A DNA stretch of 24,268 bases. Origin: a virus. Lineage: Duplodnaviria; Caudoviricetes. Position 1 is the stretch's first letter. Each line of letters opens with the position of its first letter. Made by a program: the position numbers and the translations under genes. The notes under the pieces were generated by a model, which ran no database searches, was not told the origin of the DNA, and worked only from the letters and a program-made list of their open reading frames with translations. The stretch covers positions 1-24,268 of IMG/VR virus record IMGVR_UViG_3300034045_000073; one strand, given 5' to 3'. This document shows positions 3,001 to 24,268 of the stretch, one piece after another.

Positions 3001-3331
3001 TGTATCTACCGATTTGATGTTTAGCACTCAAATCTTTAGTTTTGTAAATCAGACGGTTGAGCTAGAAACGTCTATCTTTGGCACAACTGAGCAGAGTCTA
3101 GAGTTACAGACTCAGATACTTGATGTGGTTAGTGCTGATGTAGAGTTGAGAACTCAAATATTTGATACAACATTTAGTGATTTAACTATTTCAGTGTTTG
3201 TTGATGGTGTACCAGCACCAGCATTCAAGAAAATGCCTTTTGCCTTTGAAGTAAACTCAACAAGTTACTCAGGGGAGTTACAAACAGGGTCTTTTGGCTT
3301 TATACTAGGCGATAAATCTAACGGGTATTAA
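2..3331 (+). CDS. Large virion structural / fibre-like protein, 5'-truncated: LamG/concanavalin-like domains, probable beta-helix segment, C-terminal 14-aa repeats
   Basis: The frame of the 233..3331 ORF stays open back to base 2, so the true start lies outside the window. LamG-like text (SDFTIEVKIKR...DTDWHIILVTKAGTNLVTKLDG), G/T/S/N-rich composition, and position upstream of the lysis genes. Confidence 0.7.
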   Translation, partial: ASDGVIEWAANNEIRSTTASTTITPPLDSSLTDADSYIIRVVCTKTAYGGDNVTIFSHSLAKFNSRINCTLGNYNNTLSFGLINQGSWEDIAIPLNLYETYEATMVYDSVTKVAKLYNHGIYLSEKTLTNGFYVNSGQTGMNFSIPAESTKSFTNLMVLTKTGSFTQAEIDTIVKDPYSLFKTKQKKQAEYGLVGNGGANITHPVVTLPVNSDFTIEVKIKRNSVSTSHTGVLGGGSSSNYIFLQDGANLRVKLGGADSTLVDAIIDTDWHIILVTKAGTNLVTKLDGVEVLNEIDANAYDVTLWSILSNDNLYKANISIAYYKIIADTQTNSRFWEFNQTFGDTVIDHYNGAIATLVGFSADSGYVRGADGLIEGYRLAGRLSGITILTPTQAGDVLEIDFGSEIDYSQSLGGYPSTASTVLDARWGATGYMLVTRDGDVSAYAGFTDLKIDGELTPYTGNYTTNGLGNLTGKTLSITPPAGATLTVGNRYSLSEAVLFMIKGMRLLRGGEVVSDWDCTTGDETKFPDTIGNNHAVINNASTDKWQEIVPVQVFTVGAGKDYPLVSTAMRALDNPTSAQTRNLIVSGVLVENTEQYPNNTNAVELNWNITSNETIIANYPTIEGLKLSMFGSNTDINVSRVKLVQSNIVVTSGQGTGFNLTYDHCDIDGQFTTNHLLASTSRWENGLPKIRNSTVRNYKVSVNNGAAQLDDCIIIDCAGTYSSFGNINDGAIATNCLSLLTTNQYNYGVTTPPCFKGTIGSNNISSDTSATTLGIGTQDTALNTYFTDPANGDYTINSDGQTALAGQGWNGTDIVSWAYAVASGGLLSITSDLELQNQILGSVFNSIELQNQILAPLTKDIELQTRIFNAVFSDVELQTYVLGVAQQTLDLRTQVLSSLTNDVSLQTQILGSLSNDLDLRTSILGSVSQDLILQTKVLSAILTVYRDLELRNQILGSVSQFAELRTQILGVIAGDLELRTQLLDSLTQDAELRTQILSFVSTDLMFSTQIFSFVNQTVELETSIFGTTEQSLELQTQILDVVSADVELRTQIFDTTFSDLTISVFVDGVPAPAFKKMPFAFEVNSTSYSGELQTGSFGFILGDKSNGY
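2489..3169 (+). repeat. 16 tandem 14-aa protein repeats (consensus about VxxDLELxTQILGS), arranged 8+8 around a 3-aa insert
   Basis: Read directly from the translation: ITSDLELQNQILGS, VFNSIELQNQILAP ... VSADVELRTQIFDT, with ILT inserted after unit 8. Confidence 0.9.
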
Positions 3332-3360
3332 TTTACGTATTTTAAAATTGGGGATCGACG

Positions 3361-3852
3361 ATGGCAACAGCAATACAACCGACTGATATTAAATTTTATG
3401 AGTCAACAGGCAATTTAGGTGGTGCAATTACAGCAACAGAAATTGTTACCGCAACTATGAATAATATGTTTCGCAACATTACGTCAGCAGAGGCAGCAAC
3501 AGGTATCACACTTTTTGGTGTGCTTTATGTGAAACAAACCTCAACCTATAACGGTTCAGCGACCAAAGTCTGGATTCAATCTAACACACCTAGTCCAGCT
3601 ACAGCCCTTACTATTGGTTTAGGTTCTGCTGGTGTTAACAGTACAGAACCCTCAATAGGCTCTGACACTACACCGCCCACTGGCATTACCTTTGTAACTG
3701 CTATTGATGAAGCTAACTCACTTACTGCACCTGATTTAGCAGCGGGAGACTACATAGCTATTCATGTTAAATATGTTGTTGACCCTGCGGCACCAGCTAT
3801 CAACTTAGACAATATGGTTCTACGTGTGAAAATGGACTCACCAAGTCTTTAA
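3361..3852 (+). CDS. Phage structural protein, 163 aa, beta-rich
   Basis: Clean ORF with GGGG SD and the ATCGACG-ATG motif; T/A/G-rich; follows the fibre gene. Confidence 0.6.
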   Translation: MATAIQPTDIKFYESTGNLGGAITATEIVTATMNNMFRNITSAEAATGITLFGVLYVKQTSTYNGSATKVWIQSNTPSPATALTIGLGSAGVNSTEPSIGSDTTPPTGITFVTAIDEANSLTAPDLAAGDYIAIHVKYVVDPAAPAINLDNMVLRVKMDSPSL

Positions 3853-3868
3853 GTAATAGGAGTTTAAT

Positions 3869-4210
3869 ATGGTGTCTCCAGTAGGGATTATTAAGAAAAC
3901 CCTTAAAGTGGCTTTGGGTCGTAACGACCCAAAAACACTCACTGTCATTCAGGACGGGCTCCCAGTTGATTTTATTGCTAGTGGTGTTACAAAGCTTGGG
4001 ATTCTAATTAATGGTGTTGAGTATTTTTCAACTGATGGCTATATGACCTATGATGCTAATGGTGTTATTACGTTTAAACTGGGGAGTATTCCTAGCATGA
4101 CTAAAGGTAAATACCCTGTTAGGTTGTTTTCATATACAGCGCAAACCCCTTTGGGGCAGCCAATATATACTGAGAAAACAGATTTTAGACTAGCCGTTGA
4201 ATTTTATTAA
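3869..4210 (+). CDS. Small phage structural/accessory protein, 113 aa, Ig-like pattern
   Basis: AGGAG SD upstream; alternating beta-strand pattern and GKYPVRL motif; followed by a terminator. Confidence 0.55.
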   Translation: MVSPVGIIKKTLKVALGRNDPKTLTVIQDGLPVDFIASGVTKLGILINGVEYFSTDGYMTYDANGVITFKLGSIPSMTKGKYPVRLFSYTAQTPLGQPIYTEKTDFRLAVEFY

Positions 4211-4236
4211 AAAAGCGCTACTTAGTAGCGCTTTTT
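4210..4236. terminator. Bidirectional rho-independent terminator
   Basis: AAAAAGCGCTAC-TTA-GTAGCGCTTTTT perfect inverted repeat with A and T tails, immediately after the stop codon. Confidence 0.85.
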
Positions 4237-4356
4237 ATTGTCTTTGTAACTCTACTCGAAGTCACCACTAAGTCTTCACAATAATCCCTGTGGTAATATA
4301 ACTACTACAATAAACTCACCCAGAAGTCATAAACCATTATGAATTCAGACATTTTG

Positions 4357-4386
4357 GTGACAAATAAGTAGCACTCTATGTATACT
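4357..4386 (+). promoter_or_regulatory. Putative sigma70-type promoter for the membrane-protein/lysis operon
   Basis: GTGACA-18 nt-TATACT in the intergenic gap after the terminator, 65 nt before the 4452 start. Confidence 0.4.
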
Positions 4387-4451
4387 CAAAGGTAATTTAT
4401 GAAGTTGTGTTTTTATGTTGAAACACAAAGAAATCTCATTAGGAATCGACG

Positions 4452-5012
4452 ATGGCTGACCACAAAACAGACCGAGAAATACTTGAAAGTATTGAAAAAA
4501 TACTTAGCCAAGCTTTAGAGTCAAAACCTCATTATCGGTGTCATGCTGAAAAGCCACAAGCTATAAATATTGCTGAGGTGCTTAGTAATCTAAACGCCTA
4601 TCACGCTCAGCATGGTCAGCCGCTTGAGTCCCACCTACATCAGTCTCATCATGGGCTTAATACCCCTATAGGGTTGAATACTCTCGACGTTAACCGAGAC
4701 TCAAAATTATCCGTTACCATAAAAGACGTGATTGTTCTTGTTGGTGTTAGTATCGCTGCCACCTTGTTCTATGCAAGCTTCAACTCAAGACTCTCTAATT
4801 TAGAAGAAGCCAATGCTCACGCAGAGGCTAAGGTTTCTCAGGTAGTTGAAAATCAAATTACCCAGTTGCGGGTAAACAACGACAACAAAATTTACAAACT
4901 CCGTGATGATATAGAAAAAAAATTAACTCAAGTCAATGATAAGGCTGGTACTACATGGCAAATGCTGAGAACAACTCAAAAAGATGTAGAACTTTTAAAA
5001 AAATCTCGTTAA
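4452..5012 (+). CDS. Single-pass membrane protein with His-rich N-terminal part and C-terminal coiled coil
   Basis: TM segment VIVLVGVSIAATLFYASF; heptad-like tail (RLSNLEEANAHAEAK...KDVELLKK); HAQHGQPLESHLHQSHHG; AGGA SD plus start motif. Confidence 0.7.
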   Translation: MADHKTDREILESIEKILSQALESKPHYRCHAEKPQAINIAEVLSNLNAYHAQHGQPLESHLHQSHHGLNTPIGLNTLDVNRDSKLSVTIKDVIVLVGVSIAATLFYASFNSRLSNLEEANAHAEAKVSQVVENQITQLRVNNDNKIYKLRDDIEKKLTQVNDKAGTTWQMLRTTQKDVELLKKSR

Positions 5013-5419
5013 TTGTTCTCTTTTTTGTTCTCAGCTTATGGTTGTCAGTTTGTCTAGCTGACCCTGTTGTGAACAAGAAAAACCCGACTAAATTTGTCAC
5101 ACGCGCAGAGCTCGAAGACTTGTTTATGGGGAGAACACCTTATTGGGATAATGGTGAAAAAGTTATTCTTGTGTTATTGCCATTAAGGTCAATATCGACA
5201 CAGGAACTCTTAAATGAATTGAATATACCTATGTATATTTATAAACGTAAATTGGCGCGGCTATCAAAAGATTCTTTTGGAGAACTACCAATTTACGTTG
5301 ATGATACCTATGATATGTTGTTGGTAGTTGGCTCTGAGCCTAGAGCCTTGAGCTTCGTCAGAAGCAATACCATTATCTTAGAAACTGATGATATTAAACT
5401 TTTACAGGTGACCCCATGA
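4955..5419 (+). CDS. Exported single-lobe periplasmic-binding-protein-like protein (family often annotated phosphate ABC transporter substrate-binding protein)
   Basis: Signal peptide (KKISLIVLFFVLSLWLSVCLA|D), then VVNKKNP...RAELEDLFMGRTPYWDNG and MLLVVGSEPRALSFV, matching the family pattern V(N/H)PxN...LxxIFxGxxxxWxdG...VxxxPgAigYv. Confidence 0.7.
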   Translation: MANAENNSKRCRTFKKISLIVLFFVLSLWLSVCLADPVVNKKNPTKFVTRAELEDLFMGRTPYWDNGEKVILVLLPLRSISTQELLNELNIPMYIYKRKLARLSKDSFGELPIYVDDTYDMLLVVGSEPRALSFVRSNTIILETDDIKLLQVTP

Positions 5420-6648
5420 AAAGACTACCAAGTAGGATAATTTTTATTTGGATGTGTCTATTAATTGCAGCAAGTTTCAGTGTTTTTTCTAGTAGATATA
5501 CACAAGTAACTGATAACACTAGTGCTCGTATAACCATTTTTGGTGGGGTGACACACATTGACTCCGAGCATGAAAGCTTATTTAAATCTCCAATGTCTGA
5601 ATTGGGTGTGAATCTATTAAAAAACTATCCCTCTGGGCTCAGTTTCAAGGCTCAGACAAGTTTACGCCCAGCCCTACAAAATAAGGTAGGTCTTGATTGG
5701 TTTTATCTAAATTATGAGTTCAGCAAAAACTTTAGTTTTGATGTTGGGTTGCTTGATGCCAATATGGGGTTGCAAGGCTCTGGGATTCAAAATCCTTACG
5801 CTAGATATTCAGTAATTCCAATTCAAAGCACCATGTTTACGACGACACTCGGAGTAGCTTCATTAATGACTGGTGTACGAGCTAGTTACAAGCGGTATAT
5901 TTCGGCACTCGCTACTAACTTATCACTATCAGCTACTTACGGTGAGCCACGTTTTTCTCCCTCTGAATCTGAAAGTATTTTATCAGCATTACTAAAAGAG
6001 ACTTGGATTGAGGGTTATCCAACCTATGACAGTAAGTGGCAAGTTGAGCTTAAAGCAAAAACTAGGCGTTGGGATTTATCCTTAACAATTGATGATATTG
6101 GCTATACCTTTGATTCATATAATTTAGAGCAGAAACACTTTAGACAAATGGTTGCTAGTGTGCGCAGGGCGAGTATACGAACTGAGTTTCTAGCTGAGCT
6201 TTATCTTGGCAACGCCAACCCACTGCGTAGTTCGGATTTTAACAAAGCACCTATACCTGAGGATGCCCCTGAGCAGCCACCTTTTGCTAAAGGTGGTATT
6301 AGTGGTTTCAACGTTTATGTTAGTCAGTTACTTATGGATAGAGTAACTATGTATGGGGGGATTTCCTTATTCTATTTCGATACGGAATCACCACATGGTG
6401 ACTACTGGGAATCGGTTCGTCCAGAGGGTGAAATATACCAATATCCTAAGGAATTCAGGTATAATGAAGACTTGATGCTTGGTTTTCGTTACGACTTTAC
6501 AGATGACCAAGCACTTACATTTGAGATACACAGAAGTAAAGGTGTTCTAGCTAATCGCTACAATTATTTTTCTGACCCACAAGCAAAATCTAATATCGAT
6601 GATACTACGTGGTATGTGTATGCACTCAACTGGTCATTTATGTTTTGA
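5416..6648 (+). CDS. Outer-membrane beta-barrel (porin-like) protein
   Basis: Signal peptide, amphipathic strands (ELGVN, LDWFYLNYEF, MLGFRYDF, LTFEIH) and a C-terminal beta-signal YALNWSFMF; ATGA overlap with the upstream gene. Confidence 0.75.
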   Translation: MKRLPSRIIFIWMCLLIAASFSVFSSRYTQVTDNTSARITIFGGVTHIDSEHESLFKSPMSELGVNLLKNYPSGLSFKAQTSLRPALQNKVGLDWFYLNYEFSKNFSFDVGLLDANMGLQGSGIQNPYARYSVIPIQSTMFTTTLGVASLMTGVRASYKRYISALATNLSLSATYGEPRFSPSESESILSALLKETWIEGYPTYDSKWQVELKAKTRRWDLSLTIDDIGYTFDSYNLEQKHFRQMVASVRRASIRTEFLAELYLGNANPLRSSDFNKAPIPEDAPEQPPFAKGGISGFNVYVSQLLMDRVTMYGGISLFYFDTESPHGDYWESVRPEGEIYQYPKEFRYNEDLMLGFRYDFTDDQALTFEIHRSKGVLANRYNYFSDPQAKSNIDDTTWYVYALNWSFMF

Positions 6649-8116: not shown

Positions 8117-9277
8117 CTACAAAAATGAATCCTCGTCCTCGTTTTTGCCGTGGGTAATTTCATATTCCTCGATGTAATATCCATAATGTTCATAAAGCAT
8201 TTTTGGCGAAGTATGCCCCATTAATTTTGTTAGCTTCCAAAGATTAATACCTTGAGAAATTAATCGTGACGCGAACGTGTGTCTTGTTTGGTATGGGTAG
8301 CGATATTCAACATTGGCTCGTTTAAGGCAATTCTTCCAAAAAGATTCTCTAAAGGTTGCAAAGATGATTGGTCGTTTATCACGATTTATAAAAACATATT
8401 TATCTGGTAGTGAACCAGAAATCATTACTTGGTTTTCTAATGCTAAACGACAAGCATCTGAAATAGGGATTCGTCTAGCACCACTGGCTGTTTTGGTTTT
8501 CTTGTCTTCACCTAAAACCCTAGCCCCTCGAATATGAATTGTGCTTTTTGTTATATCCGACCAGAGAAGCCCACAAGCTTCTGAACTTCTAACACCCGTT
8601 TCAAATAGAAAACTAATCAGGTTGTAGTATTTCATATTAGTTGAAGCGGAATTTAAGATAGCTTCTTGTTCTTGTTTACTAAATGGTTTTACGTCTTCGT
8701 TTATTAAATTTCTATCAACTTTATCAGCCTTTCTTAGGTAGTTTCCTAAACTAACAACTCGTGCTGGATTCTGAACTATAATTCCATCTAAGACGGCTTC
8801 ATCTAGGGCTAAAGAAAGCACTGAAAATCTACCACGCAATGTAGCAGTTGTTAGGTGACTGTTTGTTGATATGTAAGTTTGAATATGGCTTGTTGTTAAC
8901 TGTTTTACAGGGAGTGTTTTCCAGTGTTTGAACGAGTTAATTTTACTTTGGTGGGGGAGCAATGTTGATTTAGCTAAACCTCGCTTTCTAGCATTTTCAT
9001 AGAATTTATCTAGGTAATAGCCAACGGTGGGTGATTTAGGCGTGTTGCCAAAAATAAGTGTCTTTTTACTATCTGGGAAATACTCCGCATAGCTAAAGAT
9101 ATTTTCGTATATCTTACGTTGTATCTCAGCTAAGCGGTTGGCTGTATATTTAATCTGAGCTTTGGTCGGGTTAATGATTCTCGTGGATTCGTAGCATTTT
9201 ACACCACGATAACTAAAACGAATCCACAAGGTTTCACCTCTTAAATATAATCCTCTTGGGAGTTTTCCAGCGCCCAT
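8117..9277 (-). CDS. int: Tyrosine integrase with N-terminal arm-binding domain (DUF3596-like)
   Basis: N-terminal LPRGLYLRGETLWIRFSYRGVKCYES; catalytic ETGVRSSE, KTKT, YQTRHTFAS, LMGH, LYEHY. Confidence 0.95.
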   Translation of the reverse strand: MGAGKLPRGLYLRGETLWIRFSYRGVKCYESTRIINPTKAQIKYTANRLAEIQRKIYENIFSYAEYFPDSKKTLIFGNTPKSPTVGYYLDKFYENARKRGLAKSTLLPHQSKINSFKHWKTLPVKQLTTSHIQTYISTNSHLTTATLRGRFSVLSLALDEAVLDGIIVQNPARVVSLGNYLRKADKVDRNLINEDVKPFSKQEQEAILNSASTNMKYYNLISFLFETGVRSSEACGLLWSDITKSTIHIRGARVLGEDKKTKTASGARRIPISDACRLALENQVMISGSLPDKYVFINRDKRPIIFATFRESFWKNCLKRANVEYRYPYQTRHTFASRLISQGINLWKLTKLMGHTSPKMLYEHYGYYIEEYEITHGKNEDEDSFL

Positions 9278-9782: not shown

Positions 9783-11807
9783 TTAAATCTCTACGCGACT
9801 TTCAGCCTCTAACTCCTTGTGTGAAGCTTGAAGTACTTGACCAACTTGAGGTGTTATTTTTTGGATACAACCCCAAGTATAATTAGCTCTTTCTTCATCC
9901 ATAGCGGAGTCTATTTCATCTAACATCATAACAGGAAGTACCTTATGAGTTAAAATTCTACCCAAACCAATACGTAAAGCTAAATTAGCTATATCTTTGC
10001 TTGAACCATTTAAGGTTCTTAATGGTTGACTGTCTACGGTAACTTCAAAGTCTGGTTGTATTTCTACGCGTTGATTTAAACCACCCGTCATTTCATACAT
10101 CAAGTAACTAGCTACTTTATTTAGTGACGGAATTAAGAAGTTTTGAACTTTATCTTTAACCTCTTTAACTGCGGCTCTAGCCTTTAAGTGTTCATCGTAA
10201 AAGGCTTTTTGTTTATCAATCACACGCTGATGCTCAGCAAAACTTTTTACTTGTTGAGTGTAAATATCAAGTTCTCGGTCATACACACGCCACTGCGATA
10301 ATTGTTGATTTAGCTCAGAACGACGATTATTAAGCGCTGTTTGTATATCGGCACCATAATCTTCAATTAATCTTTTCAAGGTTTCTTGAGCTTCATTATA
10401 TGTAGTAAGGTCTTCCATATAATGTTCTTTGGCGTCTAAGTATCTTGCTGTAGCAATATGGTATTGCTGCATTAATTGTTCCCGTTGACTATCTAGCGTA
10501 GCACAGTTAACTTCCCAAGCTTTTACTTGAGCAACATAACGATTTTCTGCCTTAGTAACCAACTCAGTGTAACGGGCTAGATCTTGTTTATATTGCTGTA
10601 ACTTAACACGTAAGTCGCTCAATTCGTTAAATCTACGTTTGTTCTCAACTAGGTTTAATTCTCGAATCTGTTCATCTAAGGTTAAATATTCAGCATTTAA
10701 GTTAAGCTGTTTTTCAATGGCTAACCATTCTTGAACTGTTAGCTTTGGTGCTTTCTTAGGTAACTTCATTGCTCGTAAGGTATCTATTTCATCATGCTCC
10801 AAATGAAAACCTTTTTTGCAATGTGGGCAGTTAATCAACTCACCAGATTCTAATCGGTCTAGTTTCTGGCGCAAGGCATAGTTATCCCACGCAGCCACTA
10901 TTGCTTCCTGTGTTTTGTAGTCGTTAGGAAGTTTTACCTCAGGTTGATATTTATTTTGAGCATTTACCCAGTTATTAAATAGCGGGGCATTTTGCTGTAA
11001 ATTTAGCGCTAAAGTTTTGAAAAAGGTTTCAAAATCTCCCTCAACCCAATCAGGAATTGCTGGGGGTTTTGGGGCTTCTTGAACAAGCTCAGCTTTTTCA
11101 GGTTTCTCAGGGAGCAAAATCTCTGTAGGCTTTATTGGTGCTACAGGTTCAACGGGTAGCCTAATGGCTGTTGCTTTAGCTAGTTTTTCAGCTTCAACAT
11201 CTAAACCTTTTAAGGCAAGTGTTATCTTAGACTCGCTTGCTAGTTCTGGTTTTAAAGGTTCTTTAGGAGCTTGTATCAAAGATTCTTGTTGTTCAATAGC
11301 TGCTTTTTGTTCTCTAAGTGTTATTTTCAAACTATCCATTAAGCTGTCCATTTGTGTTAACCCAGCTACAGAATCAATCATAGCCTTGCGCTCGGTTGGA
11401 CGCATATTAGCTAAAGCTTGAATATCACCTTGGGCACACCAATGAGCAATTTTGAAGACATCAAAATTATAACCTAAAGTTCTAATGACCCATGTGTTTA
11501 CTGGTTTAGCCCCTGAAACAATCTGTTCGTCATTAAGAAATACTGCGGCTTTAGTTTTGGTGCGTTTAATGTTGTAGATTTTATCCTTTATAGCTACTAC
11601 TAGTTCGAGTTCAATACTTTTGTAGTCAGTTGCTACTCCGCGCAAGGCACTAGCCCCAAACAGGGCATAAGCTATCATCTCAAAAGTCATTGATTTACCT
11701 TTACCGTTCTTTCCTGTGATAAGGGTAGAACCAGCTTCAAAATTAAGCTCTTGGCTTAGCGTTTTTAGGTTGGCAAAAGTAATATCATATTGTAAATAAG
11801 AAATCAT
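9783..11807 (-). CDS. sbcC: SbcC/Rad50-like recombination ATPase
   Basis: Walker A GKNGKGKS, Q-loop AQGDI, zinc hook CPHC, signature LNGSSKD, Walker B MMLDEID, H-loop SHK, long coiled coils. Confidence 0.9.
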   Translation of the reverse strand: MISYLQYDITFANLKTLSQELNFEAGSTLITGKNGKGKSMTFEMIAYALFGASALRGVATDYKSIELELVVAIKDKIYNIKRTKTKAAVFLNDEQIVSGAKPVNTWVIRTLGYNFDVFKIAHWCAQGDIQALANMRPTERKAMIDSVAGLTQMDSLMDSLKITLREQKAAIEQQESLIQAPKEPLKPELASESKITLALKGLDVEAEKLAKATAIRLPVEPVAPIKPTEILLPEKPEKAELVQEAPKPPAIPDWVEGDFETFFKTLALNLQQNAPLFNNWVNAQNKYQPEVKLPNDYKTQEAIVAAWDNYALRQKLDRLESGELINCPHCKKGFHLEHDEIDTLRAMKLPKKAPKLTVQEWLAIEKQLNLNAEYLTLDEQIRELNLVENKRRFNELSDLRVKLQQYKQDLARYTELVTKAENRYVAQVKAWEVNCATLDSQREQLMQQYHIATARYLDAKEHYMEDLTTYNEAQETLKRLIEDYGADIQTALNNRRSELNQQLSQWRVYDRELDIYTQQVKSFAEHQRVIDKQKAFYDEHLKARAAVKEVKDKVQNFLIPSLNKVASYLMYEMTGGLNQRVEIQPDFEVTVDSQPLRTLNGSSKDIANLALRIGLGRILTHKVLPVMMLDEIDSAMDEERANYTWGCIQKITPQVGQVLQASHKELEAESRVEI

Positions 11808-12823
11808 TATTCAGTGGCTCCCTGAGTGGTTTCCCAAAGGTTTGAGGTAAGTTCTTGGCTTACACCATTTTCAGTCAATGTTTGAAAGAAAATGCTCTTT
11901 AGGTCAAAACCATCAATGTCTATGTTAAGGTCTACTTGTTGTTGTTCTGTTTTTATTTTACCGACCGTAAGAGATAAACAATCTACTTCGGTATCAAACA
12001 CATCACCTTGAGTTAACATTACGCGTAAGTTCTTCAAATGGTAAGTATCGGGTTTTTTATCTAGTTGGTCTAGAACTTGGTCTTTTGTTCTAGTCACATA
12101 CCATAGTTCTTCTGAGTCTTCTGAATGGGAATATGGTTGCAGACTACCTGTGATGATAACAGGCGTTTTGAACTCTGACTCAAACTCTGTTTTATTATGA
12201 TAGTGACCTGAAACTATAAGTTTGGCGTCTTTTAATAATTCATAAGGGATCATGTTTGTGTTTGACTCCCCAGAAATTAAACCAAAGTCTTTAATGTCCC
12301 AATGTCCTACCGCTATATAGTCTTGTTTCTTTTCTTTGGTTAGATGCAAACCACAGTCTACGATTTCTTCGGCTGTTTTGTAAGGATGCCAAGGGCAAAT
12401 TAGAACCTCAGTATCATCAACAGTAAACCACTCAGGAAATTCACTAACTACTGAGACATTTGGGATTCCACGACATAACTGCTCAAACAATTCAAATGAA
12501 GACACTAATTCAGTGTCTCTTGAGGCATCGTGATTCCCACGCAAAACTACGTATTTAATATTTGGATTACGCTCAGCAGCTTCTTTATAACTGAAAAAGG
12601 CAAATAAGATTATTTCTTCTGGGACTCTAAATTTATCAAATAAATCCCCAACACAAATATGTAACTTTGTGCCTGATTTTGGTTTGAGCAACTGATTTCT
12701 GAATTCGTTGTGAACAAAGTTTTCGCGTTCACCACGTCGAATTGGGGGCACACCTGAGGTGAATTTTCTTCCTAAATGAGGATCACCCATAAATGAGATG
12801 TTTGCGTTTTCTAATATTGTCAT
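11807..12823 (-). CDS. sbcD: SbcD/Mre11-like metallophosphoesterase nuclease
   Basis: GDPHLG, VGDLFD, RGNHD, GHW and SGHYH motifs; stop/start overlap with the SbcC gene. Confidence 0.9.
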   Translation of the reverse strand: MTILENANISFMGDPHLGRKFTSGVPPIRRGERENFVHNEFRNQLLKPKSGTKLHICVGDLFDKFRVPEEIILFAFFSYKEAAERNPNIKYVVLRGNHDASRDTELVSSFELFEQLCRGIPNVSVVSEFPEWFTVDDTEVLICPWHPYKTAEEIVDCGLHLTKEKKQDYIAVGHWDIKDFGLISGESNTNMIPYELLKDAKLIVSGHYHNKTEFESEFKTPVIITGSLQPYSHSEDSEELWYVTRTKDQVLDQLDKKPDTYHLKNLRVMLTQGDVFDTEVDCLSLTVGKIKTEQQQVDLNIDIDGFDLKSIFFQTLTENGVSQELTSNLWETTQGATE

Positions 12824-12831
12824 CGTCGTTC

Positions 12832-13275
12832 CTAGTTTTTAGTTTTAGTGCTGGTTTGTCTTGGTTCCCAGTAGTATTTTAACAAATCTTTTTCTAATAA
12901 AGATTTTTTTTCTGCCCGTAGTATAGCCTGTGCAGGGACTTTATACCAGCGGTCAGAAGTTAGAAAATGAATAAAAAAGAAATATTCCCCTGAGGCTTTT
13001 GAAACTTTGGTTGCTGAACGCCATTGAGAAGCCTTTATATTCGAGAAGTTGAAGCGACTGCCACTAGCAATGCTTTTTACTTCTGCATAAAAAGTTCGCC
13101 CTAAAATAGTGATTATATAGTCTGATGGTTTTGCAGCGACTATCTTCCGAGTTCTTCCTGAAGCTTTAAAATTAGCATCTGCATAGTCTTCAAACCTATA
13201 AACATCTGCAAAAGTTGGTAGTCTCCCCCAATAAGCTTCAAAGATGTTCTCACTGTTCTTGCCATTATTTTTCAT
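12832..13275 (-). CDS. PD-(D/E)XK nuclease, probable Holliday junction resolvase (RecU-like)
   Basis: GKNSENIFE...PSDYI...FYAEVKS...SQW; lies in the recombination cluster. Confidence 0.7.
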   Translation of the reverse strand: MKNNGKNSENIFEAYWGRLPTFADVYRFEDYADANFKASGRTRKIVAAKPSDYIITILGRTFYAEVKSIASGSRFNFSNIKASQWRSATKVSKASGEYFFFIHFLTSDRWYKVPAQAILRAEKKSLLEKDLLKYYWEPRQTSTKTKN

Positions 13276-13295
13276 CGTCGATTTCCTGATATTGC

Positions 13296-13715
13296 TTAGT
13301 TATTTCTTGGTGTTCGCTTTTTAAACACAAGGTTTTTATTTTTGTTACTTCGATTTCTCTTTGTTCTGCGAACCTCAGCCATGTAGCTGGCATGATGTTT
13401 ATGCAGTTGCTCTAAAGCATAACGAGACTGTTCAGCAGTTACCTCACCATCAACCTTTCCCCAGAGGTTCTTTCGTAGGGCTCCAGTTCTAATAGTCTTT
13501 AGATATTTAATGCTGTGTGTGTGGAATTTTAGTGCCTCAAACAAGGTTCTAGAGCTAATTACTTTTGGAGATAAAATAGCTCTTATTTGTTTAAATATGT
13601 TTACACTTAAAGGTGAAACCCATTTGACTTTGTATGTGCTGTGATTATCACAATAATCACGAATCCAAAGCCACGCCTCGTAAGGCGTGTCAAAGGTTAT
13701 TTGTTCTTTTTTCAT
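13296..13715 (-). CDS. ProQ/FinO-domain RNA-binding protein
   Basis: PLSVNIFKQI...SRTLFEALKFHTHSIKYL...GALRKNLWGKVDGEVTAEQSRYALEQL aligns by eye with the FinO-domain consensus PLKIGI...LRxALxxYTxSxRYL...GAxRxDLxGxxxGxVxxE; basic tail. Confidence 0.8.
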   Translation of the reverse strand: MKKEQITFDTPYEAWLWIRDYCDNHSTYKVKWVSPLSVNIFKQIRAILSPKVISSRTLFEALKFHTHSIKYLKTIRTGALRKNLWGKVDGEVTAEQSRYALEQLHKHHASYMAEVRRTKRNRSNKNKNLVFKKRTPRNN

Positions 13716-13728
13716 AAGTTATCCAACG

Positions 13729-16700
13729 TTAGGCAGCGGCTCTATAAATACCCTCATAGATTCTTAATAATGCTGCATCAACTCTCTGCCTGTAGCTAGG
13801 CTCAAGAGCTTCAAAAAACGAGTTGTACTCACTATAAGTACCACCGTTAACTAGTGAGAAGACATAGCTTCTCAAATTATCTGGAATACGCACAAGCGGT
13901 GTGAATATTCTAGACTTTGAGTTCTTTTGGGCGCGTTTTATGTCTGATACCATAATTTCAAAGCTTGATAATGATATAGAAGCCAAACGTTTACGTACAC
14001 CATTAACTTGAGAAAAAATTCTAGAACCTGTTTCCCAAGTCAAGCCCAACCATTTTAAACTCTTACTTATTTCTTTCTTATAATCACGTTCATTAGCGAC
14101 TTCTTTTATTTCTGAGCCAAAGATAATTTTAATTTTATCTGCTTGTGAATACAAATACTCATAAGTTAAGTATAACTCATAATCAGTTAATGGTGTTTCG
14201 TCAAAACTCAGTCCTAAATCATCAACAGTTATATGTAAGTGTTCAAGTAACCCTAAAAGTAACTCTCGTCTGTCAAATAAAGCGCGTAGGTAAAAAGCGT
14301 GTCGTTTTTTATCTAAGCGAGATATTACATCAAGTAACGCTAAGTCGTCAGCGTTAGCACCAATAATTAAACTCGTAGCACGTCCTTTAAGTTTAGCTGA
14401 TGAAAGTGTGATTAAATCATTTAGTTCATCAGTCTCTTGTGGGAACCCGAACAAATCAGCCTGAGCTTTTTTAAAGTACTGTCTCTGTTCGTCAGCCGTT
14501 AACGTAAGCTTTGATTTAAGTTCTTCAAATTCTTTATCAGTAATTAGCGGAGTGTTAATTAGTGTCTCACGTTCAACTTGTTTTAATGTTTTTTTTAGGT
14601 TTTGTTCATAAACCTTTAACTCTTGGCACAATTGGGTTGGTGCTGAACTAGCGTCTTCTAATTCAAAACCCTCAACAGCAATCTGCTGAATAAAGTTAGG
14701 ATAAAAGGAGTTCTTTTCTAAGTTCTCACGGGCGGTCAATTCACCGTAATAAGTTGTCCACCCTTGGTCATTAAACGTTATAGCCCCAGTTTCCCAATTA
14801 AAAACTGCTAACGAAGTAAGGTGTTTATCAAGTATTCCTTTGTTTCCTAATACTTCTGTCTGAACAATCTTAATGGGGTCTAACTCAAGGTGAGTATTGT
14901 AATGTGTTATTACTAAGTTAAGGTCAGTGCAGTCTCTAACTCTAGCGAGATGCTGTAGACAGTCACTCGGTAAATTTTCAGCCCGTTTAGTGAAATAGGC
15001 AAAAACTTTCTGTAATTTCGGCTTACCATCTACTGAATCAATAGAAACCCCTGTGCCAAGTGAGGGGCTCGACATAAAAATATCAGTCTCTCTTAGTTCT
15101 GAGTTTATATTTTTAATAAAATATTGAACATCTTTAGTTTGGCTGTTATGGGCTGTAATTGTGATTACTCGTTTATCCCCAAAGTCAGTTATAAAATGTT
15201 CTTCTGATAGCTCAGGGTCACCGCCTAAAACTTCAACAGCTTGAGCTGCCATAAAAAGAATATTGTTCCTTGAGTTAGAAGCATAGAACACACCTGAATC
15301 TTTTATTGCTTCTCTAAAATCTAACACAAATGATAGCCTGTCAGGTTTATTAATATCTACGGCATCACGATAGATATTTAATTTCTTGCCTTTAGCTGGA
15401 AGATATTTATTTACTATCACGTGAAAATTTGGTTTCTCTGGAAACAGCGAGAACTCACCTTCAGCTAAAAAAACAATTATATCTTTAGACATATCAGCAT
15501 CCATTAGAATTACGTATTTAGCTGTTTGCAATAAGTGCCTTAACACCTTTAGACACAAAAATTTATGTTTAACTATTCCAGATTTTATCGTTCTTATTAG
15601 CTGTACAAATTCATCTATTACCACAAAGTCATAGACAAGTCCTGAAACCCGATGTAATGAGTTATAACAAACACCTAGTCTTGGTTCAGGGCGTATCAAG
15701 TGGGCTTTATCGTTATTAAATGTGTTGTAGCTGGTTAGGTTAAAATCCTTACATAGGGTGCTTACTAAAGAAATTCTATGACTTATGGCTAGTACACGCC
15801 CCTCACAAGCTTTTATTTTTCTAGCAATAGCTGTAGTTTTACCTGTCCCTTTTTCACCTTTCAATAAAGTTATACCTTTTTTTAGGGTTATTTCTGGGAA
15901 GTAACGTTCATTCAGTATTACTGGGTCTAAGGTCAATAATTCAATATCCGAGTGTTCAACTGTTCTGACACGAATAAACTCGTTATATGTATCATTTAAA
16001 TTAAAGGTTCTTCCACCCTCAACAAAAGAATTAATTACGGGCGCTTGTTCAGTTAGGTTGGCATAAAATTTAGCCCGACTAAAACCTTTATCAGGTCTAA
16101 ATGGGTCTAGTACACCAACACCATCAAATTCTGAACTTCGTTGTAATAATTCGGCTACGGTTATTTCTCGTCCGTCTTCAAAATAAATAATGTGCTCAGG
16201 GTGAAGTATATAGCGTGACATAGCTGATACTGTTCGCTGGGCTTCCTGTTCAGTTAACGGGTGTTTAGTAAAGTGATTTTTACTTACAAGTCTCGTTTCT
16301 AATTGTTGTTTTTTGGCTTGTACTCGCTCCATTACCGAGTCACTTTCTTTTAGCTGTGTTTGTAGAGACAGCAACTCAGCACTTTGTTTTGGTGTTAGCT
16401 TTTTAAAGGTTTTGGTATTTATTTCTTTAATATCTTTTTCAACATATTCAGCCATTGGCAGATTTTGATAAAAAGTTTCTGTTTCAGCAATATCAGCACC
16501 AGCTGCATAGATTAAGCGTTCTGGGGTGAATACCGCTAAATCGAGTATAGTTCTAGTTAATCTGTTGGCTGACGACCCAATTTTTATATAGCCTAAATTA
16601 GCTCTCCAACAACCTAATTCTAAATGTTTTGCGAAGGCTTCTAAGTTTTCACCAGCGTTGATTTGCATATAAATATGGAAACCCTCTGGCTCTCTTATTA

Positions 16701-19630: not shown

Positions 19631-22483
19631 CTAAAGGCTCTTTGGTACTTGTTGTAAATAGTCCACAACATACTGCCTGTGTTTTTTATCTAACTTAGTC
19701 CCCGCGAGTTCTTCTGGTATATAACCCTCTAGCACAGGGGCTTCATCTAACTCAATCTGACCAAAAGGGGCTTTTACTGGGTGATAGGGTTCCAATGTTA
19801 ACCCAACTGAAACCGTACCATCTAGTTTTAACCATTTAACTAAGTCAGGGTGACTACACATAACTTCTAAAATTCTATTCCCAAAAGCTACAGCTTGTGT
19901 GTGGTGAACAGAAAAAACTAATTCATCGTGGATTGGCACTTTAAAGTAAGCATCCCATTGTGTGTCTGGAGAGCTTATTTCGTCTACAAGCTTTTTGATT
20001 GACCGCTTAGCAAGTGTAGCACAACCACCTTGAATTTTAGCGTTTACAACTTGGTTACCAGCCCTGCGTTGAATCTTTTTAGCCACGAATTGTCCAAATG
20101 TTGATACCGCAGGATGTTGGTAAGCATCAAACTTTGCAGTGAAAGTCATAAACCAATCTTGAGTAGCTTCATATCGAGTTCGTCTATGACCATCAAACAC
20201 CCAAACAAAACCAGCATCTCTGGCTTCGTCAATAGTAGTAAGACGCCAATGCTCCGCAACTTCGAAAGTATTTCGATAGTTCTCTGTACCGAGCCACATT
20301 TCATCAAGTGTCCAACCCAGTTTTTCTTGGACTGTCATCAAACTTCCTGAATACCAATATCCAAAGTTTGAGGGTTTACCCGCATCACCACGCCAGAATT
20401 TGTAAGCACTTTTAGCATCAAGTTCTTGGTGTGTTATAGGGTGCATAAAGACTCTCGGAAACTTAGCTTTTAACTCCGCTATCTGTTGTGCGTTGCTGGT
20501 AACGAGTTCTTTCAAGGTTTCATCCCCAAAGTCAGGGTAGTAAACCTGAATTGCTGAGGTTGCCGCGCCAAGATGTAGGTCTGTATATGGTAAGCTACCA
20601 TAGGCTTCAAAGAACATTGGATCATGGGATTCTTCACCAATCAAAACCAACTCAACTTGCGACCAATCCACTGAGACTAGAACATGGTCATCTTTTTCTG
20701 GCAAGAAAAAACCCCGAACGTATGTTGATTCGCCTCGTTTACTTAGTTGCATGGTGTTGGGGTTTTCACAAGACATACGTCTAGTGTTTAATGTTGACCT
20801 GATGATTGGGTACATCCGTTTTGTATCTGGGTCAGTCAAGTATAAATAAGGGTTTATATAGAGTTTGATTCTTGTGTCTATTTTTGTGAGCGTGTTTAAT
20901 AGCGAAATTATTTCTAGTACACTCTCTGAATCATAGTCATTAACTAATACTGAGCCTATGTTGTTTTGACTTTCAGCGTCTAAATTTCTAAAATCTTTAT
21001 TATATCTGCTGAGTTCTTTTACCCAAAGCTCTACAGACTTTCCAAGCTGTGCAGGGGATTCTCCAAGTAGCTTAGCAACATCAAGTAATTTTCCTCTAGC
21101 CTCAACATCTGTGCTTATCTCACCTTTATTATAAACAAAAGGCAAATCACACAAATCATGCAAAATGACTCTTTGAACCATGTAATGCTGTAAATTAGGT
21201 CTAGTTGCTTTAACTTTAGCAGTTACCGTGGCATCTTCTTGGGCTTCCCACTTTTCTGTTATAGCTCCATTGACTAGACGAGCAACCTCAAAATCACTCA
21301 AGCTATCGTTGTAAGCGTCAACAAAATCCACTATCTTAGCTCTAGCTTTCTCAAAACCTTTTAGGGTTTTACCTAGATACCATTTGGCTTGTTTAACTAC
21401 CAATCTAGGCGTTGGCTCTGGTTTAAAGCTCAGTTTTTTTAGTACCCTAGCTAAGGCTCTAAGCGTTTCAACGTAGCTTTCTCTCTCAACCAACTCTCGT
21501 TCATAGATTGCGGCTTCATTGACGCGCCAACCCGTTGCCCAACAATCTGACCAAATATAAGGCATAGGATTTTCTTGTTCAAAAAATACTTGTATTAAGT
21601 TGGGGTTGGTTTCTTGCATGAATTGACAAAGCCTATCAAACAGGCGAACACACCAGTAAGCGTCATCAGCACCATATTGAAGTACTTGTTCTGAGTCTAA
21701 AAGCCCCATGTGCGCTTTGCCAGCTAAGCAATCTTTGAATTCTTGTTGTTCATAATTGAAGAAAGACTTAACCGCTTTCTTTAACCCATAACCATAAGTC
21801 ATGCTTTTTACAAAACCATTATAGCTATGGTCTGCTATTGATTGTTTGGCAATAACTTGGGTGATTAGGTCTTGCTGCTCGGTTGTGAAATTATTATCCC
21901 ATGTACAGTTAGTGAAGTGTTTTTTGATGTTAGGTATAAGCTTTGAAATACCGCGCAAATCTGAGTTCTTAAAGGTTTGGATTGAGTATTCATCATCATT
22001 GTAGGCACTAACAGCCATTTGCATAGTATCTACATAATTCTTTCCTAAATCAAAGTTCCAAGTTTTTAAGCACATAGTACGCTCAAAACAATAATTATGT
22101 ATTACCCAAGTACAAGAGGATTTTATAATTTCTAAAGCTTGTAATACGACTGATAAATCAACTCTATTATGTTTGTCTTTATGTGCAACATTAACATAGT
22201 AATTCTCAGAATCTCCACGTACATAAATAGAAAAACCTGTAATGACTGTTCTGTTAGTATCAAACACGAGTTTCTTTGGTGATTTGTAAGCTTCACTCGT
22301 TGGGTCAATAACCATAAACTTATTCAACCCATCGTGACGTTTACTGTCTTCCGTCTCAATATCGAAACCAACAAGCGCTTTTGAACTTGCTGCATGATTT
22401 GCTACATCTAGTAATAGGTGTTGGTTTTGGTTGGTTATTAATTTTTGTAGAATACCTGTGTATTCATTTTCAATAGTTATCAT
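19631..22483 (-). CDS. polA: Family A DNA polymerase with 3'-5' exonuclease domain
   Basis: Exonuclease motifs FDIETED, HNYCFER, YGADDA; motif A VDWSQVEL, motif B GKPSNFGYWYSG, motif C IHDELV. Confidence 0.95.
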   Translation of the reverse strand: MITIENEYTGILQKLITNQNQHLLLDVANHAASSKALVGFDIETEDSKRHDGLNKFMVIDPTSEAYKSPKKLVFDTNRTVITGFSIYVRGDSENYYVNVAHKDKHNRVDLSVVLQALEIIKSSCTWVIHNYCFERTMCLKTWNFDLGKNYVDTMQMAVSAYNDDEYSIQTFKNSDLRGISKLIPNIKKHFTNCTWDNNFTTEQQDLITQVIAKQSIADHSYNGFVKSMTYGYGLKKAVKSFFNYEQQEFKDCLAGKAHMGLLDSEQVLQYGADDAYWCVRLFDRLCQFMQETNPNLIQVFFEQENPMPYIWSDCWATGWRVNEAAIYERELVERESYVETLRALARVLKKLSFKPEPTPRLVVKQAKWYLGKTLKGFEKARAKIVDFVDAYNDSLSDFEVARLVNGAITEKWEAQEDATVTAKVKATRPNLQHYMVQRVILHDLCDLPFVYNKGEISTDVEARGKLLDVAKLLGESPAQLGKSVELWVKELSRYNKDFRNLDAESQNNIGSVLVNDYDSESVLEIISLLNTLTKIDTRIKLYINPYLYLTDPDTKRMYPIIRSTLNTRRMSCENPNTMQLSKRGESTYVRGFFLPEKDDHVLVSVDWSQVELVLIGEESHDPMFFEAYGSLPYTDLHLGAATSAIQVYYPDFGDETLKELVTSNAQQIAELKAKFPRVFMHPITHQELDAKSAYKFWRGDAGKPSNFGYWYSGSLMTVQEKLGWTLDEMWLGTENYRNTFEVAEHWRLTTIDEARDAGFVWVFDGHRRTRYEATQDWFMTFTAKFDAYQHPAVSTFGQFVAKKIQRRAGNQVVNAKIQGGCATLAKRSIKKLVDEISSPDTQWDAYFKVPIHDELVFSVHHTQAVAFGNRILEVMCSHPDLVKWLKLDGTVSVGLTLEPYHPVKAPFGQIELDEAPVLEGYIPEELAGTKLDKKHRQYVVDYLQQVPKSL

Positions 22484-22920: not shown

Positions 22921-23130
22921 CTATTTCTTTTTATTTATAGTGTTAGGCGGTTTGTTGAATTCGTGTATGTGATCACCTATCCAGTTGTCCTTTTCTCGTT
23001 CGCTGTTGAATCTGATCACTGGCATTCTATCAAACATGGGTTTTTTGGTTATATCGAAATCATATTGGTTTTCAATTAACCACTCTACACACTCGCCCAT
23101 ATCCATTTTTAATAAATCTTCTATTTTCAT
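22921..23130 (-). CDS. Hypothetical protein, 69 aa
   Basis: AGGA SD; lies between the relic site at 22942 and attC-like site A. Confidence 0.65.
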   Translation of the reverse strand: MKIEDLLKMDMGECVEWLIENQYDFDITKKPMFDRMPVIRFNSEREKDNWIGDHIHEFNKPPNTINKKK

Positions 23131-23157
23131 TCGTTTATATTCCTGTGTTTATGGCAA

Positions 23158-23246
23158 ATATAACAACATAAATAAATGGGACGCAAAACAGTTTGTCGCC
23201 CCTCGTTAACTTTTGTACTGTGCGCCCTTTTTTATAAGGGTTAGAA
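23158..23246 (+). mobile_element. attC-like recombination site A (89 bp)
   Basis: R'' ATATAAC, spacer AACAT, L'' AAATAAAT, inner stem GGGaCGCA/TGCGCCC, T-rich L', R' GTTAGAA. Confidence 0.7.
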
Positions 23247-23435
23247 AGAATTAACTCCAAACCCTGCCGCTACTGCCATAAACATTCTGGCTTGACGTAA
23301 ATCCGCCTTACTACTTCTGTATTTGTCAGGATTTTCTATGCGGTCAATTCTTTCAGCTTCATTTGCTGCCTTACGTTTTTTTATTGTCTCGTTGTGAATA
23401 CGTGCAGCTTCTTTCTTTTTCGCACTATTTCCCAT
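23241..23435 (-). CDS. Basic hypothetical protein, 64 aa (cassette gene)
   Basis: AGGAG SD; its TAA stop is the complement of TTA in the R' box of site A. Confidence 0.7.
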   Translation of the reverse strand: MGNSAKKKEAARIHNETIKKRKAANEAERIDRIENPDKYRSSKADLRQARMFMAVAAGFGVNSF

Positions 23436-23460
23436 AACTATGCACTCCTGTTAATTAAAT

Positions 23461-23558
23461 TTCTAACAACTCGTTCAAGTACTCTCGCTCTGCTCGTCGG
23501 AAAATAACAGTTCGCTAGCTCACAAAACGTTATTTCCGCTTAACAGTAAAGGTTAGGC
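23461..23558 (+). mobile_element. attC-like recombination site B (98 bp)
   Basis: TTCTAAC-AACTC-GTTCAAGT ... CGGAAAATAAC/GTTATTTCCG stem ... GCTTAAC-AGTAAAG-GTTAGGC; close to canonical R''-L''-L'-R' architecture. Confidence 0.85.
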
Positions 23559-23560
23559 GG

Positions 23561-23764
23561 TTAATCCAGTTTCAACGTTTTGTGCAAGCTGTCAAAATCT
23601 GCCGCCCTGACATCTTTTACTATTTTATTTATTTGGCTATCTGGCAAACCAAGCTTATTTAGCGTTTGTTCAAAAGCTATTTGCAGTCTTGTTCGGTCAT
23701 TAGCAACCTTGCAAAGTTCTTCGCCAAACTTTTGCAGCATCCTAGCTTTATCACCAGTAGCCAT
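23561..23764 (-). CDS. Hypothetical helical protein, 67 aa (cassette gene downstream of acb2)
   Basis: Starts 3 nt after the acb2 stop and ends 2 nt from the R' box of site B. Confidence 0.65.
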   Translation of the reverse strand: MATGDKARMLQKFGEELCKVANDRTRLQIAFEQTLNKLGLPDSQINKIVKDVRAADFDSLHKTLKLD

Positions 23765-23767
23765 AAC

Positions 23768-23992
23768 TTAAAAACTCTCTGGTTGTGCTATAGCACGAAC
23801 AGCAGCCATAAAGCCTTTTTGTAAATCAGTTTTAGCTACTGAAACCCAGCGCTGATCTAGCTGTTTATTGCTCTGTAATTCTTCGATTAAAAATCCTACT
23901 TCTTCTGCTTTCGCTTTAACAGCGTTCATTGCGTTAATTTCGGCTTGACTTAAATCGCGATAGCCTTTAATTTTCTTGTGTTGATTATCCAT
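23768..23992 (-). CDS. acb2: Acb2-family anti-CBASS cyclic-oligonucleotide sponge, 74 aa
   Basis: MDNQHKKIKGYRDLSQ...K26...RWVSVAKTDLQKGFMAAVRAIAQPESF matches my recollection of Pseudomonas phage Acb2. Start set at ATG 23992 (AGAGG SD) because the longer ORF-track start runs through site C. Confidence 0.9.
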   Translation of the reverse strand: MDNQHKKIKGYRDLSQAEINAMNAVKAKAEEVGFLIEELQSNKQLDQRWVSVAKTDLQKGFMAAVRAIAQPESF

Positions 23993-24031
23993 TGTGTTTC
24001 CTCTTTCTTTGATTAAGTTGCCAAGCAAACC

Positions 24032-24125
24032 GCCTAACAACGCGTTTAAATTCACTCCCTTTGGTCGTCGGATTCGTTACAGTTGGTTCCCAACTTTCAC
24101 TCACCGCTTAACGCAAAGGTTATAT
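24032..24125 (+). mobile_element. attC-like recombination site C (94 bp)
   Basis: GCCTAAC-AACGC-GTTTAAAT ... GCTTAAC-GCAAAG-GTTATAT; shares the internal TCGTCGGA and CCGCTTAAC elements with site B. Confidence 0.8.
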
Positions 24126-24266
24126 TGCCTTTGTTGCTTTTTGTGCAATCTTCCATGCAGCGGTAAGCTTAGCCAATTCCCCACCTGTAATTTCTTGGTG
24201 GCTCTTGATGTCATTCAACGCTTTAGTTAGCTTTTCAATATGATTAGCCATACCTAAACATAAATA
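24120..24266 (-). CDS. 3' end of a hypothetical protein, probably truncated by the window edge
   Basis: Frame is open from the edge: YLCLGMANHIEKLTKALNDIKSHQEITGGELAKLTAAWKIAQKATKAI*; the stop lies in the R' box of site C. Not in the ORF track. Confidence 0.55.
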   Translation of the reverse strand, partial: YLCLGMANHIEKLTKALNDIKSHQEITGGELAKLTAAWKIAQKATKAI

Positions 24267-24268
24267 CT

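Follow-up and report, generated by a model that had tools for sequence, protein, structure and literature searches.

A phage DNA in which short sites resembling the attC sites of integrons alternate with small genes raises the question of whether the units between these sites are gene cassettes that moved as circles, or genes merely separated by hairpins. The DNA analysed, hereafter the window, is the whole 24,268-nucleotide stretch of the IMG/VR record IMGVR_UViG_3300034045_000073 (Caudoviricetes). A sequence-only reading had taken two units in this window to be real mobile cassettes, from the complementarity of their ends.

The window encodes an integrase, an excisionase, a family A polymerase, an origin-binding helicase-primase and an endolysin. 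Two of these genes are needed below.

8117..9277, minus strand: Arm-type phage integrase, next to the excisionase; 17.8 bits against TIGR02249, for which the cut-off is 265.
19631..22483, minus strand: family A DNA polymerase, a backbone gene downstream of the array; 52% identical to that of phage KB12-38.

The best annotated relative is Pseudoalteromonas phage KB12-38, and the host is probably a marine gammaproteobacterium. The matches to the exonuclease and the polymerase lie about 70 bp apart in KB12-38, in a genome half that contains no scored site; here the gap between the two genes is 3.2 kb and contains nine small ORFs and five sites. Elsewhere in the window, positions 13296-13715 encode a ProQ/FinO-family protein (E 3e-14), which is also annotated in KB12-38, and positions 4955-6648 contain ORFs of 154 and 410 aa between the tail and lysis genes, without a Pfam match. 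By eye, we take the latter ORFs to resemble a secreted binding protein and an outer-membrane protein.

The row of sites continues beyond the window in L002, a near-identical viral contig (2 mismatches in 14,635 bases) that runs 8 kb past the right end of the window and contains two further sites, D and E, and ORFs U4 and U5. The record of this contig, G001, is 33 kb long and 41% complete, the estimated genome being 80 kb. The row in L002/G001 comprises five attC-type sites within 1.7 kb, with U4 being 310 bp long. The sites and units in the window are as follows.

23158..23246, plus strand: attC-type site A, 89 nt; crossover G23240|T23241; 85% identical to site E.
23241..23552, plus strand: putative cassette U1, 312 bp; 8-base end complement; includes the body of attC B.
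23461..23558, plus strand: attC-type site B, 98 nt; crossover G23552|T23553.
23553..24119, plus strand: putative cassette U2, 567 bp; 11-base end complement; two genes and the body of attC C.
24032..24125, plus strand: attC-type site C, 94 nt; crossover G24119|T24120; conserved in contigs L007 and L029.
24120..24268, minus strand: putative cassette U3, cut by the end of the window; 390 bp in full, with a 93-aa ORF and an 8-base end complement.

Sites A, B and C share one layout on the plus strand, which consists of R'', a 5-nt spacer, an 8-nt L'' with one extra base, a variable interior, a 7-nt L', a 6-7-nt spacer and R'. In site B, for example, R'' is TTCTAAC, the spacers are 5 and 7 nt, L'' and L' are 8 and 7 nt, and R' is GTTAGGC. 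The box features of attC (AAC/GTT cores, L''/L' boxes, extra base and spacers) are thus present in all three sites. A CALIN is defined by at least two attC sites within 4 kb on one strand without intI nearby, and the row has this form in a record that is 41% complete. The row is not a complete integron, as no intI is found in about 7.6 kb of flanking DNA to one side or in 21 kb to the other side.

The sites were scored with a scanner written for this purpose after A, B and C had been seen. At a score of 15.5 it detects only A, B and C in the window and none in four Markov shuffles, counts that are flattering because the scanner was tuned on these three sites. It had been widened to a 5-nt spacer after a stricter version missed all sites, including those of phage TJE1. 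When it is applied to published sites, both tested TJE1 sites and attC2 of phage H101 are recovered, and H101 attC1 and both P12002L sites are missed; no site is detected at a score of 14.5 in the first 40-50 kb of each of four further published CALIN phages. The scanner is specific yet insensitive. Rfam gives no match in the window. A degenerate pattern of sites A and E is found at 106 viral loci, nearly all by chance, with three scored sites among them.

The ends of a canonical integron cassette are complementary to each other in the circular form. The 8-bp and 11-bp end complements that had been claimed were both recovered by script at the positions given: GTTAGAAA (23240-23247) is complementary to TTTCTAAC (23460-23467) in 8 bases, and GTTAGGCGGTT (23552-23562) to AACCGCCTAAC (24028-24038) in 11 bases. 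The crossover G residues at 23240, 23552 and 24119 give unit lengths of 312 and 567 bp, in agreement with the sizes proposed for U1 and U2. Likewise, R'' and R' within a present site pair only around the core, as had been noticed, with 4, 5 and 4 bases in A, B and C, respectively. U3 matches its own end in 8 bases, U4 in 5 and U0, the leftmost unit of the row, in 4, so that U1, U2 and U3 follow the circular-form rule and U0 and U4 do not.

The joint probability that both runs arise by chance is about 4e-7 when the 4-base core is fixed and the base composition of the window is used, and about 2e-5 once the RYYYAAC/GTTRRRY consensus is allowed for. An empirical null set was constructed from 23 de-duplicated phage units (5 duplicate rows were dropped), which give 506 non-self end pairings. 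A run of at least 8 bases is found in 35 of these pairings and a run of at least 11 in one. The 11-bp match is clearly non-random. The 8-bp match taken alone is only modest, because 7% of the non-self pairings equal it. Over the whole set, a run of at least 7 bases is found in 16 of the 23 units, as compared with 2.8 under shuffled pairings, and the observed mean run is reached in none of 20,000 shuffles, so that the complementarity of the 23 units is far from chance.

Folding of the sites as DNA in their in-array form is no better than that of shuffles (z of -0.1 to -1.4). Such poor folding is what one would expect of sites whose R box becomes complete only upon circularisation. The units were circularised in silico and folded, as the sequence-only reading had suggested. 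The probability of the recombinogenic bottom-strand fold, with the R and L boxes paired, increases from 0.0024 to 0.041 for B and from 6e-5 to 0.091 for C; it also increases from 0.0036 to 0.23 for D and is lowered for E. The in-array forms have pfold values of 6e-5 to 0.25. Natural attC sites occur across the range of these probabilities according to the accessible part of Loot 2017 (PMC5371416), and the bottom strand can thus fold in the manner of attC. No circle or excision junction is found among the contigs of the sequencing runs, and no RNA data set is listed among the runs that contain the sequence. We infer circular intermediates for U1 and U2.

A search for the same cassettes elsewhere, which had also been proposed, shows that U2 (567 bp) recurs in four other phage contexts, namely L004-L006 (one context), L007, L029 and L218. 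At the left edge, homology begins at G|TTAGGCGGTTAAT in all four contexts, and the upstream DNA, which consists of three different attC sites and one remnant, is different each time. At the right edge, attC C is kept up to its G|TT in L007 and L029 and is followed by different DNA. L004 retains the attC arms but has a shorter, different interior between them, and the site of L218 has decayed. Contig pieces from three runs (loose ends in X1, X5 and X6) have another attC body behind the U2 genes. Three long records have almost no other DNA in common with this phage: in blastn comparisons the cassette is all that G001 shares with G003 (578 bp, 93%) and G004 (588 bp, 85%), and with G002 it shares the cassette and one attC. 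The conserved edges of U2 in records that are otherwise unalike indicate that U2 moved between unrelated phages. Because site C, at the 5' end of the genes, travels with U2, the crossover is placed at the canonical G|TT of R'.

The outside support for U1 (312 bp) is weaker and concerns its left edge only. In runs X5, X7 and X8, contig pieces of 55 bp match from 23239 onwards and are preceded by different DNA, which by eye resembles another attC arm; these pieces come from three runs of two studies at low depth, have the same loose end and probably represent one phage. The claim that both units were real mobile cassettes is therefore borne out at both edges for U2 (in L007 and L029) and at the left edge only for U1. 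Integration of circles at G|TT is supported by the conserved boundaries of U2, and a consistent lack of these flanks in homologues elsewhere, or unrelated boundaries, which would have spoken against the units as cassettes, is not what this search returned. In plasmids, U2 gives five short matches, all inside acb2.

Cassette residence is the exception for the Acb2 and U3 gene families. Only 9 of 80 Acb2 loci are array loci with at least two scored sites, and a site at a score of 15.5 or more is found at none of 11 other loci of U3 homologues. Among 400 Gammaproteobacteria, the Acb2 family is detected in five genomes; in the site scoring, which covers those other than G255, a single inverted site is present at one locus (L238) and no site at four others. 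The site of L238 (genome G336), a reversed attC-type site at 1957-2065, is located two genes upstream of the acb2 homologue of this gammaproteobacterial genome.

The left end of the row is less regular.

22921..23130, minus strand: ORF U0, 69 aa, the leftmost unit of the row.
22942..22954, plus strand: possible left array boundary, G|TTAGGCGGTTTG, inside ORF U0.

The G|TT at 22942 pairs in 13 bases with R'' of C but in only 4 with R'' of A, and may be a primary insertion site or the end of a chimeric cassette. A 33-bp piece in run X5 has the 22942-22954 flank and then diverges. ORF U0 has no Pfam, PHROG or NCBIfam match, and only an identical copy is found in viral contigs. Sites A and E (23158-23253 in the window; 7652-7743 in L002) are 85% identical, share the same 13 bases past the crossover and are followed by different genes; the R'' flank of A is common to D. 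The likeness of A and E suggests that, besides site-specific events, a duplication or a homologous exchange took place. The U0 leader with R'' of A (23125-23168) is also found in runs X1, X6, X7 and X8, where it is followed by other attC bodies, and in two X8 contigs it is joined to a U3-like start. These varied continuations suggest that such ends form a family used by several cassettes.

The genes of U1 and U2 are as follows.

23241..23435, minus strand: ORF U1, 64 aa, basic and helical; AGGAG ribosome site upstream.
23561..23764, minus strand: ORF U2b, 67 aa, four predicted helices; starts 3 nt past the acb2 stop.
23768..23992, minus strand: acb2 homologue, 74 aa, PF24729; predicted anti-CBASS cyclic-nucleotide sponge.

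The acb2 homologue matches PF24729 with an E-value of 2e-21 (76.3 bits; cut-off 27) and aligns with the structure PDB 8h2j at an E-value of 1e-18. It retains equivalents of Y11, K26, R67 and T74, which are binding residues of PaMx33 Acb2 in the accessible text of PMC10312549. Acb2 is characterised as a hexamer that takes up cyclic di- and trinucleotides and blocks CBASS. Because these four residues are kept, the protein is predicted to soak up CBASS signals, and it would act against CBASS. As compared with PaMx33 Acb2 (8h2j; PMC10312549, accessible text), both helices align and the four residues are present, but the phage homologue is 19 residues shorter in the middle of the protein and is carried on a cassette with a 67-aa partner. 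In L029 and L218 acb2 diverges in its central part (68% protein identity in L029), with U2b being 91-96% identical and the cassette ends conserved; this pattern suggests allele swapping inside the cassette.

In each of the four other contexts of the cassette, too, U2b follows acb2. A fold search with U2b gives nothing at an E-value of 0.001 or less, and the Atlas gives no usable match; none of 352 pattern matches in GTDB genomes is confirmed, and three loci are found in metagenomes, two of which are not counted as new beside G002 and G004. The U1 protein has 13 homologues with identities of 65-100%, and its predicted structure has a pLDDT of 74 and a pTM of 0.39. In viral contigs only an identical copy of U1 is found, and U4 gives, besides its identical copy, only two weak partial matches. 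Neither the U1 protein nor the DNA of U3 and U4 has a match in annotated phages. An antirestriction-family gene (PF03230, E 7e-12) is located at 109-591 of L002, in the early region and outside the array.

All genes of the row are oriented opposite to the top strand of attC, with the ribosome site and start beside R''. The stops of U1-U5 are located at the crossover or at most 10 bases away; the stop codon of ORF U1 is the complement of the crossover TTA. The canonical polarity, with the ORF on the attC top strand and attC at its 3' end, is thus absent, and all five sites of this phage are inverted. Neither this polarity nor the Acb2 cargo had been noted in the sequence-only reading. Of the 27 scored sites in the five phage records G001-G005, 26 are inverted and one is without assignable polarity, but this sample was picked via Acb2 and gives no general frequency. 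All six further sites in L041/L042 are inverted; the six sites of the bacterial control loci L215/L216 are four canonical, one inverted and one unassignable. Inversion is not universal in phages, as all three sites of TJE1 are canonical and those of P12002L are mixed. In H101 (NC_029094, 75,500-78,400; L226), both sites that were tested with IntI1 are on the plus strand amid annotated minus-strand genes. Longer reversed arrays of small ORFs, which are candidates for anti-defence screens, are located at 10,900-14,800 of G003 (9 scored sites), at 32,000-34,200 of G004, at 2,800-4,800 of G005, adjoining a prophage integrase, and in L041/L042.

In ordinary integrons, bottom-strand selectivity sets the genes so that the promoter Pc reads them (Nivina 2016, PMC5027507, accessible text). 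Insertion of ordinary cassettes by the wrong strand was considered as the origin of the inverted layout and rejected, because it would turn gene and attC together. Since it does not give this layout, the cassettes were built reversed. A top-strand crossover, in which the attC at the 3' end of a gene would travel along, is hinted at by the likeness of A and E; it was rejected for U2, with which C travels. A likely reason for the polarity, at about even odds, is a seed site that lay this way, so that only inverted cassettes were transcribed and kept; a replication-strand effect of the kind described in Loot 2017 (PMC5371416, accessible text) is a possible alternative cause. Promoter-like matches number 11, as compared with 12.9 +/- 3.3 in shuffles, and no terminator-like match is found on the gene strand at the five sites. 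Because there is no excess of either signal and the genes are co-directed with the replication genes, they are likely expressed by read-through from a phage early promoter.

A dedicated recombinase was sought in the five phage records G001-G005. TIGR02249 scores over its cut-off in none of them and in both control bacterial genomes. G003 is 99% complete and contains 9 scored sites and no PF00589 match, so that the enzyme must act in trans for G003. G002 encodes a short, 211-aa catalytic-domain tyrosine recombinase at 3877-4512, about 31 kb from its array (26 bits). No close chromosomal relative of attC C is found, with one weak partial match in 400 Gammaproteobacteria, and a pattern search (two genomes) gives no close chromosomal relative of the sites either.

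Taken as a whole, U1 and U2 are probably gene cassettes in a phage row that has five attC-type sites and in which the genes run antisense to these sites. An integron integrase acting in trans, most likely that of the host, is likely to have excised them as circles and inserted them at G|TT. IntI would bind the folded bottom strands of two neighbouring sites, and the unit would leave as a circle, its R box completed by its own ends. A second phage in the cell would then receive this circle at the G|TT of one of its sites. The integrase would work in trans, host IntI being the simplest source, and the cassette genes, each with its own ribosome site, would be read through from the phage early promoter. 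A possible route for the founding cassette is insertion by IntI at a short GWT site that is not part of an integron, which can occur in either orientation (Loot et al., 10.1101/2022.09.11.507474, accessible text).

The cassettes may be real and the recombinase an IntI or IntI-like enzyme but phage-encoded, in the missing part of the genome or in co-infecting phages. The genome is estimated at 80 kb, of which the record covers 33 kb, and no close host attC family was found by pattern (two genomes) or in the 400 Gammaproteobacteria. This possibility is unlikely, as IntI is over the cut-off in none of the five records, the 99% complete G003 is without a tyrosine recombinase match, and the recombinase of G002 is about 31 kb off the array and scores only 26 bits; moreover, inverted H101 sites are recombined by a bacterial enzyme, IntI1 (Qi 2023, PMC9892861, accessible text).

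It is less likely still that the units are morons swapped by homologous or illegitimate recombination at short shared edges, with attC as the relic of one old capture. The 85% identity of A and E and their 13 shared bases past the crossover do look like a duplication, the attC interiors are swapped among the copies of U2, and such routes are raised in the accessible text of Qi 2023 (PMC9892861). However, the contexts have no more than a few bases, ending in G, in common to the left of the U2 crossover, which is too little for homologous exchange, and most of the different units (16 of 23) retain an end complement of their own. It is hardly credible that the early genes are separated by terminator or RNA-processing hairpins at these sites and that the complementarity is a matter of chance. 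The present-form sites fold no better than shuffles, a point in its favour, but a terminator-like match on the gene strand is found at none of the five sites, the complement is offset between neighbouring sites rather than within one, and the boundaries are conserved across unrelated phages. The assertion that these are not just terminator-like hairpins is supported.

If movement of U1 and U2 as cassettes is true, it provides a testable route for phage mosaicism in accessory early genes, by site-specific exchange and not by illegitimate recombination, and phages likely trade counter-defence genes by means of an integron enzyme borrowed from the host. The array ORFs without known function are candidates for anti-defence genes by position, as bacterial integron cassettes are for defence genes. 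That stops and ribosome sites lie so close to the reversed sites is relevant to the question of how cassettes are born. The cultured phage H101, with the same layout, makes the idea testable now. The reversed polarity may keep host cassettes silent in a phage array and phage cassettes silent at a host attI. A broader proposal, to which we give an even chance, is that marine phages maintain a cassette pool of their own with reversed polarity, which carries counter-defence genes, acb2 among them, and is shuffled among unrelated phages by the host integrase, the polarity keeping phage and host cassettes mutually silent, as an anti-defence mirror of the defence integron.

Phage CALINs and the activity of IntI1 on phage attC sites are already published (Qi et al. 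2023, PMC9892861). In the searched literature, mostly titles and the starts of abstracts with thin coverage of subscription papers, no paper on reversed phage cassettes or cassette-borne acb2 was found, and neither is described in the accessible parts of PMC8876359, PMC13676570, 10.1101/030866 and 10.1101/2024.07.02.601686. The row resembles the CALINs of Qi 2023 (PMC9892861, accessible text) in being a phage-borne attC cluster with small ORFs and without a nearby integrase, and the CALIN of the Pseudoalteromonas phage H101, whose record was re-read, has the same inverted layout. It differs in that the cargo reported there is methyltransferases and that no single cassette is traced there across unrelated phages; the accessible text makes no remark on antisense genes, although the figures or Dryad files may show polarity.

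As compared with canonical integron cassettes (PMC5027507; Cury et al. 2016, 10.1101/030866; accessible parts), the box anatomy, the G|TT crossover and the size of 310-570 bp are alike. In contrast, the phage genes are antisense to the attC top strand, with attC at their 5' end (compare PMC5027507, accessible text), and intI, attI and Pc are not found for the phage row. The layout also differs from that produced by wrong-strand insertion in Nivina 2016 (PMC5027507, accessible text), which turns gene and attC together. Insertion at attG and the resulting SALINs (Loot et al., 10.1101/2022.09.11.507474, accessible text) are similar as a route to seed a cassette at a short GWT, but are described there for bacterial chromosomes. 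The row is like the integron defence banks (Darracq et al., 10.1101/2024.07.02.601686; Kieffer et al., 10.1101/2024.07.02.601719; accessible parts) in that cassettes serve the arms race between phage and host, and unlike those of Darracq et al. (accessible part) in that the array is carried by the phage and its one identified cargo is a counter-defence gene.
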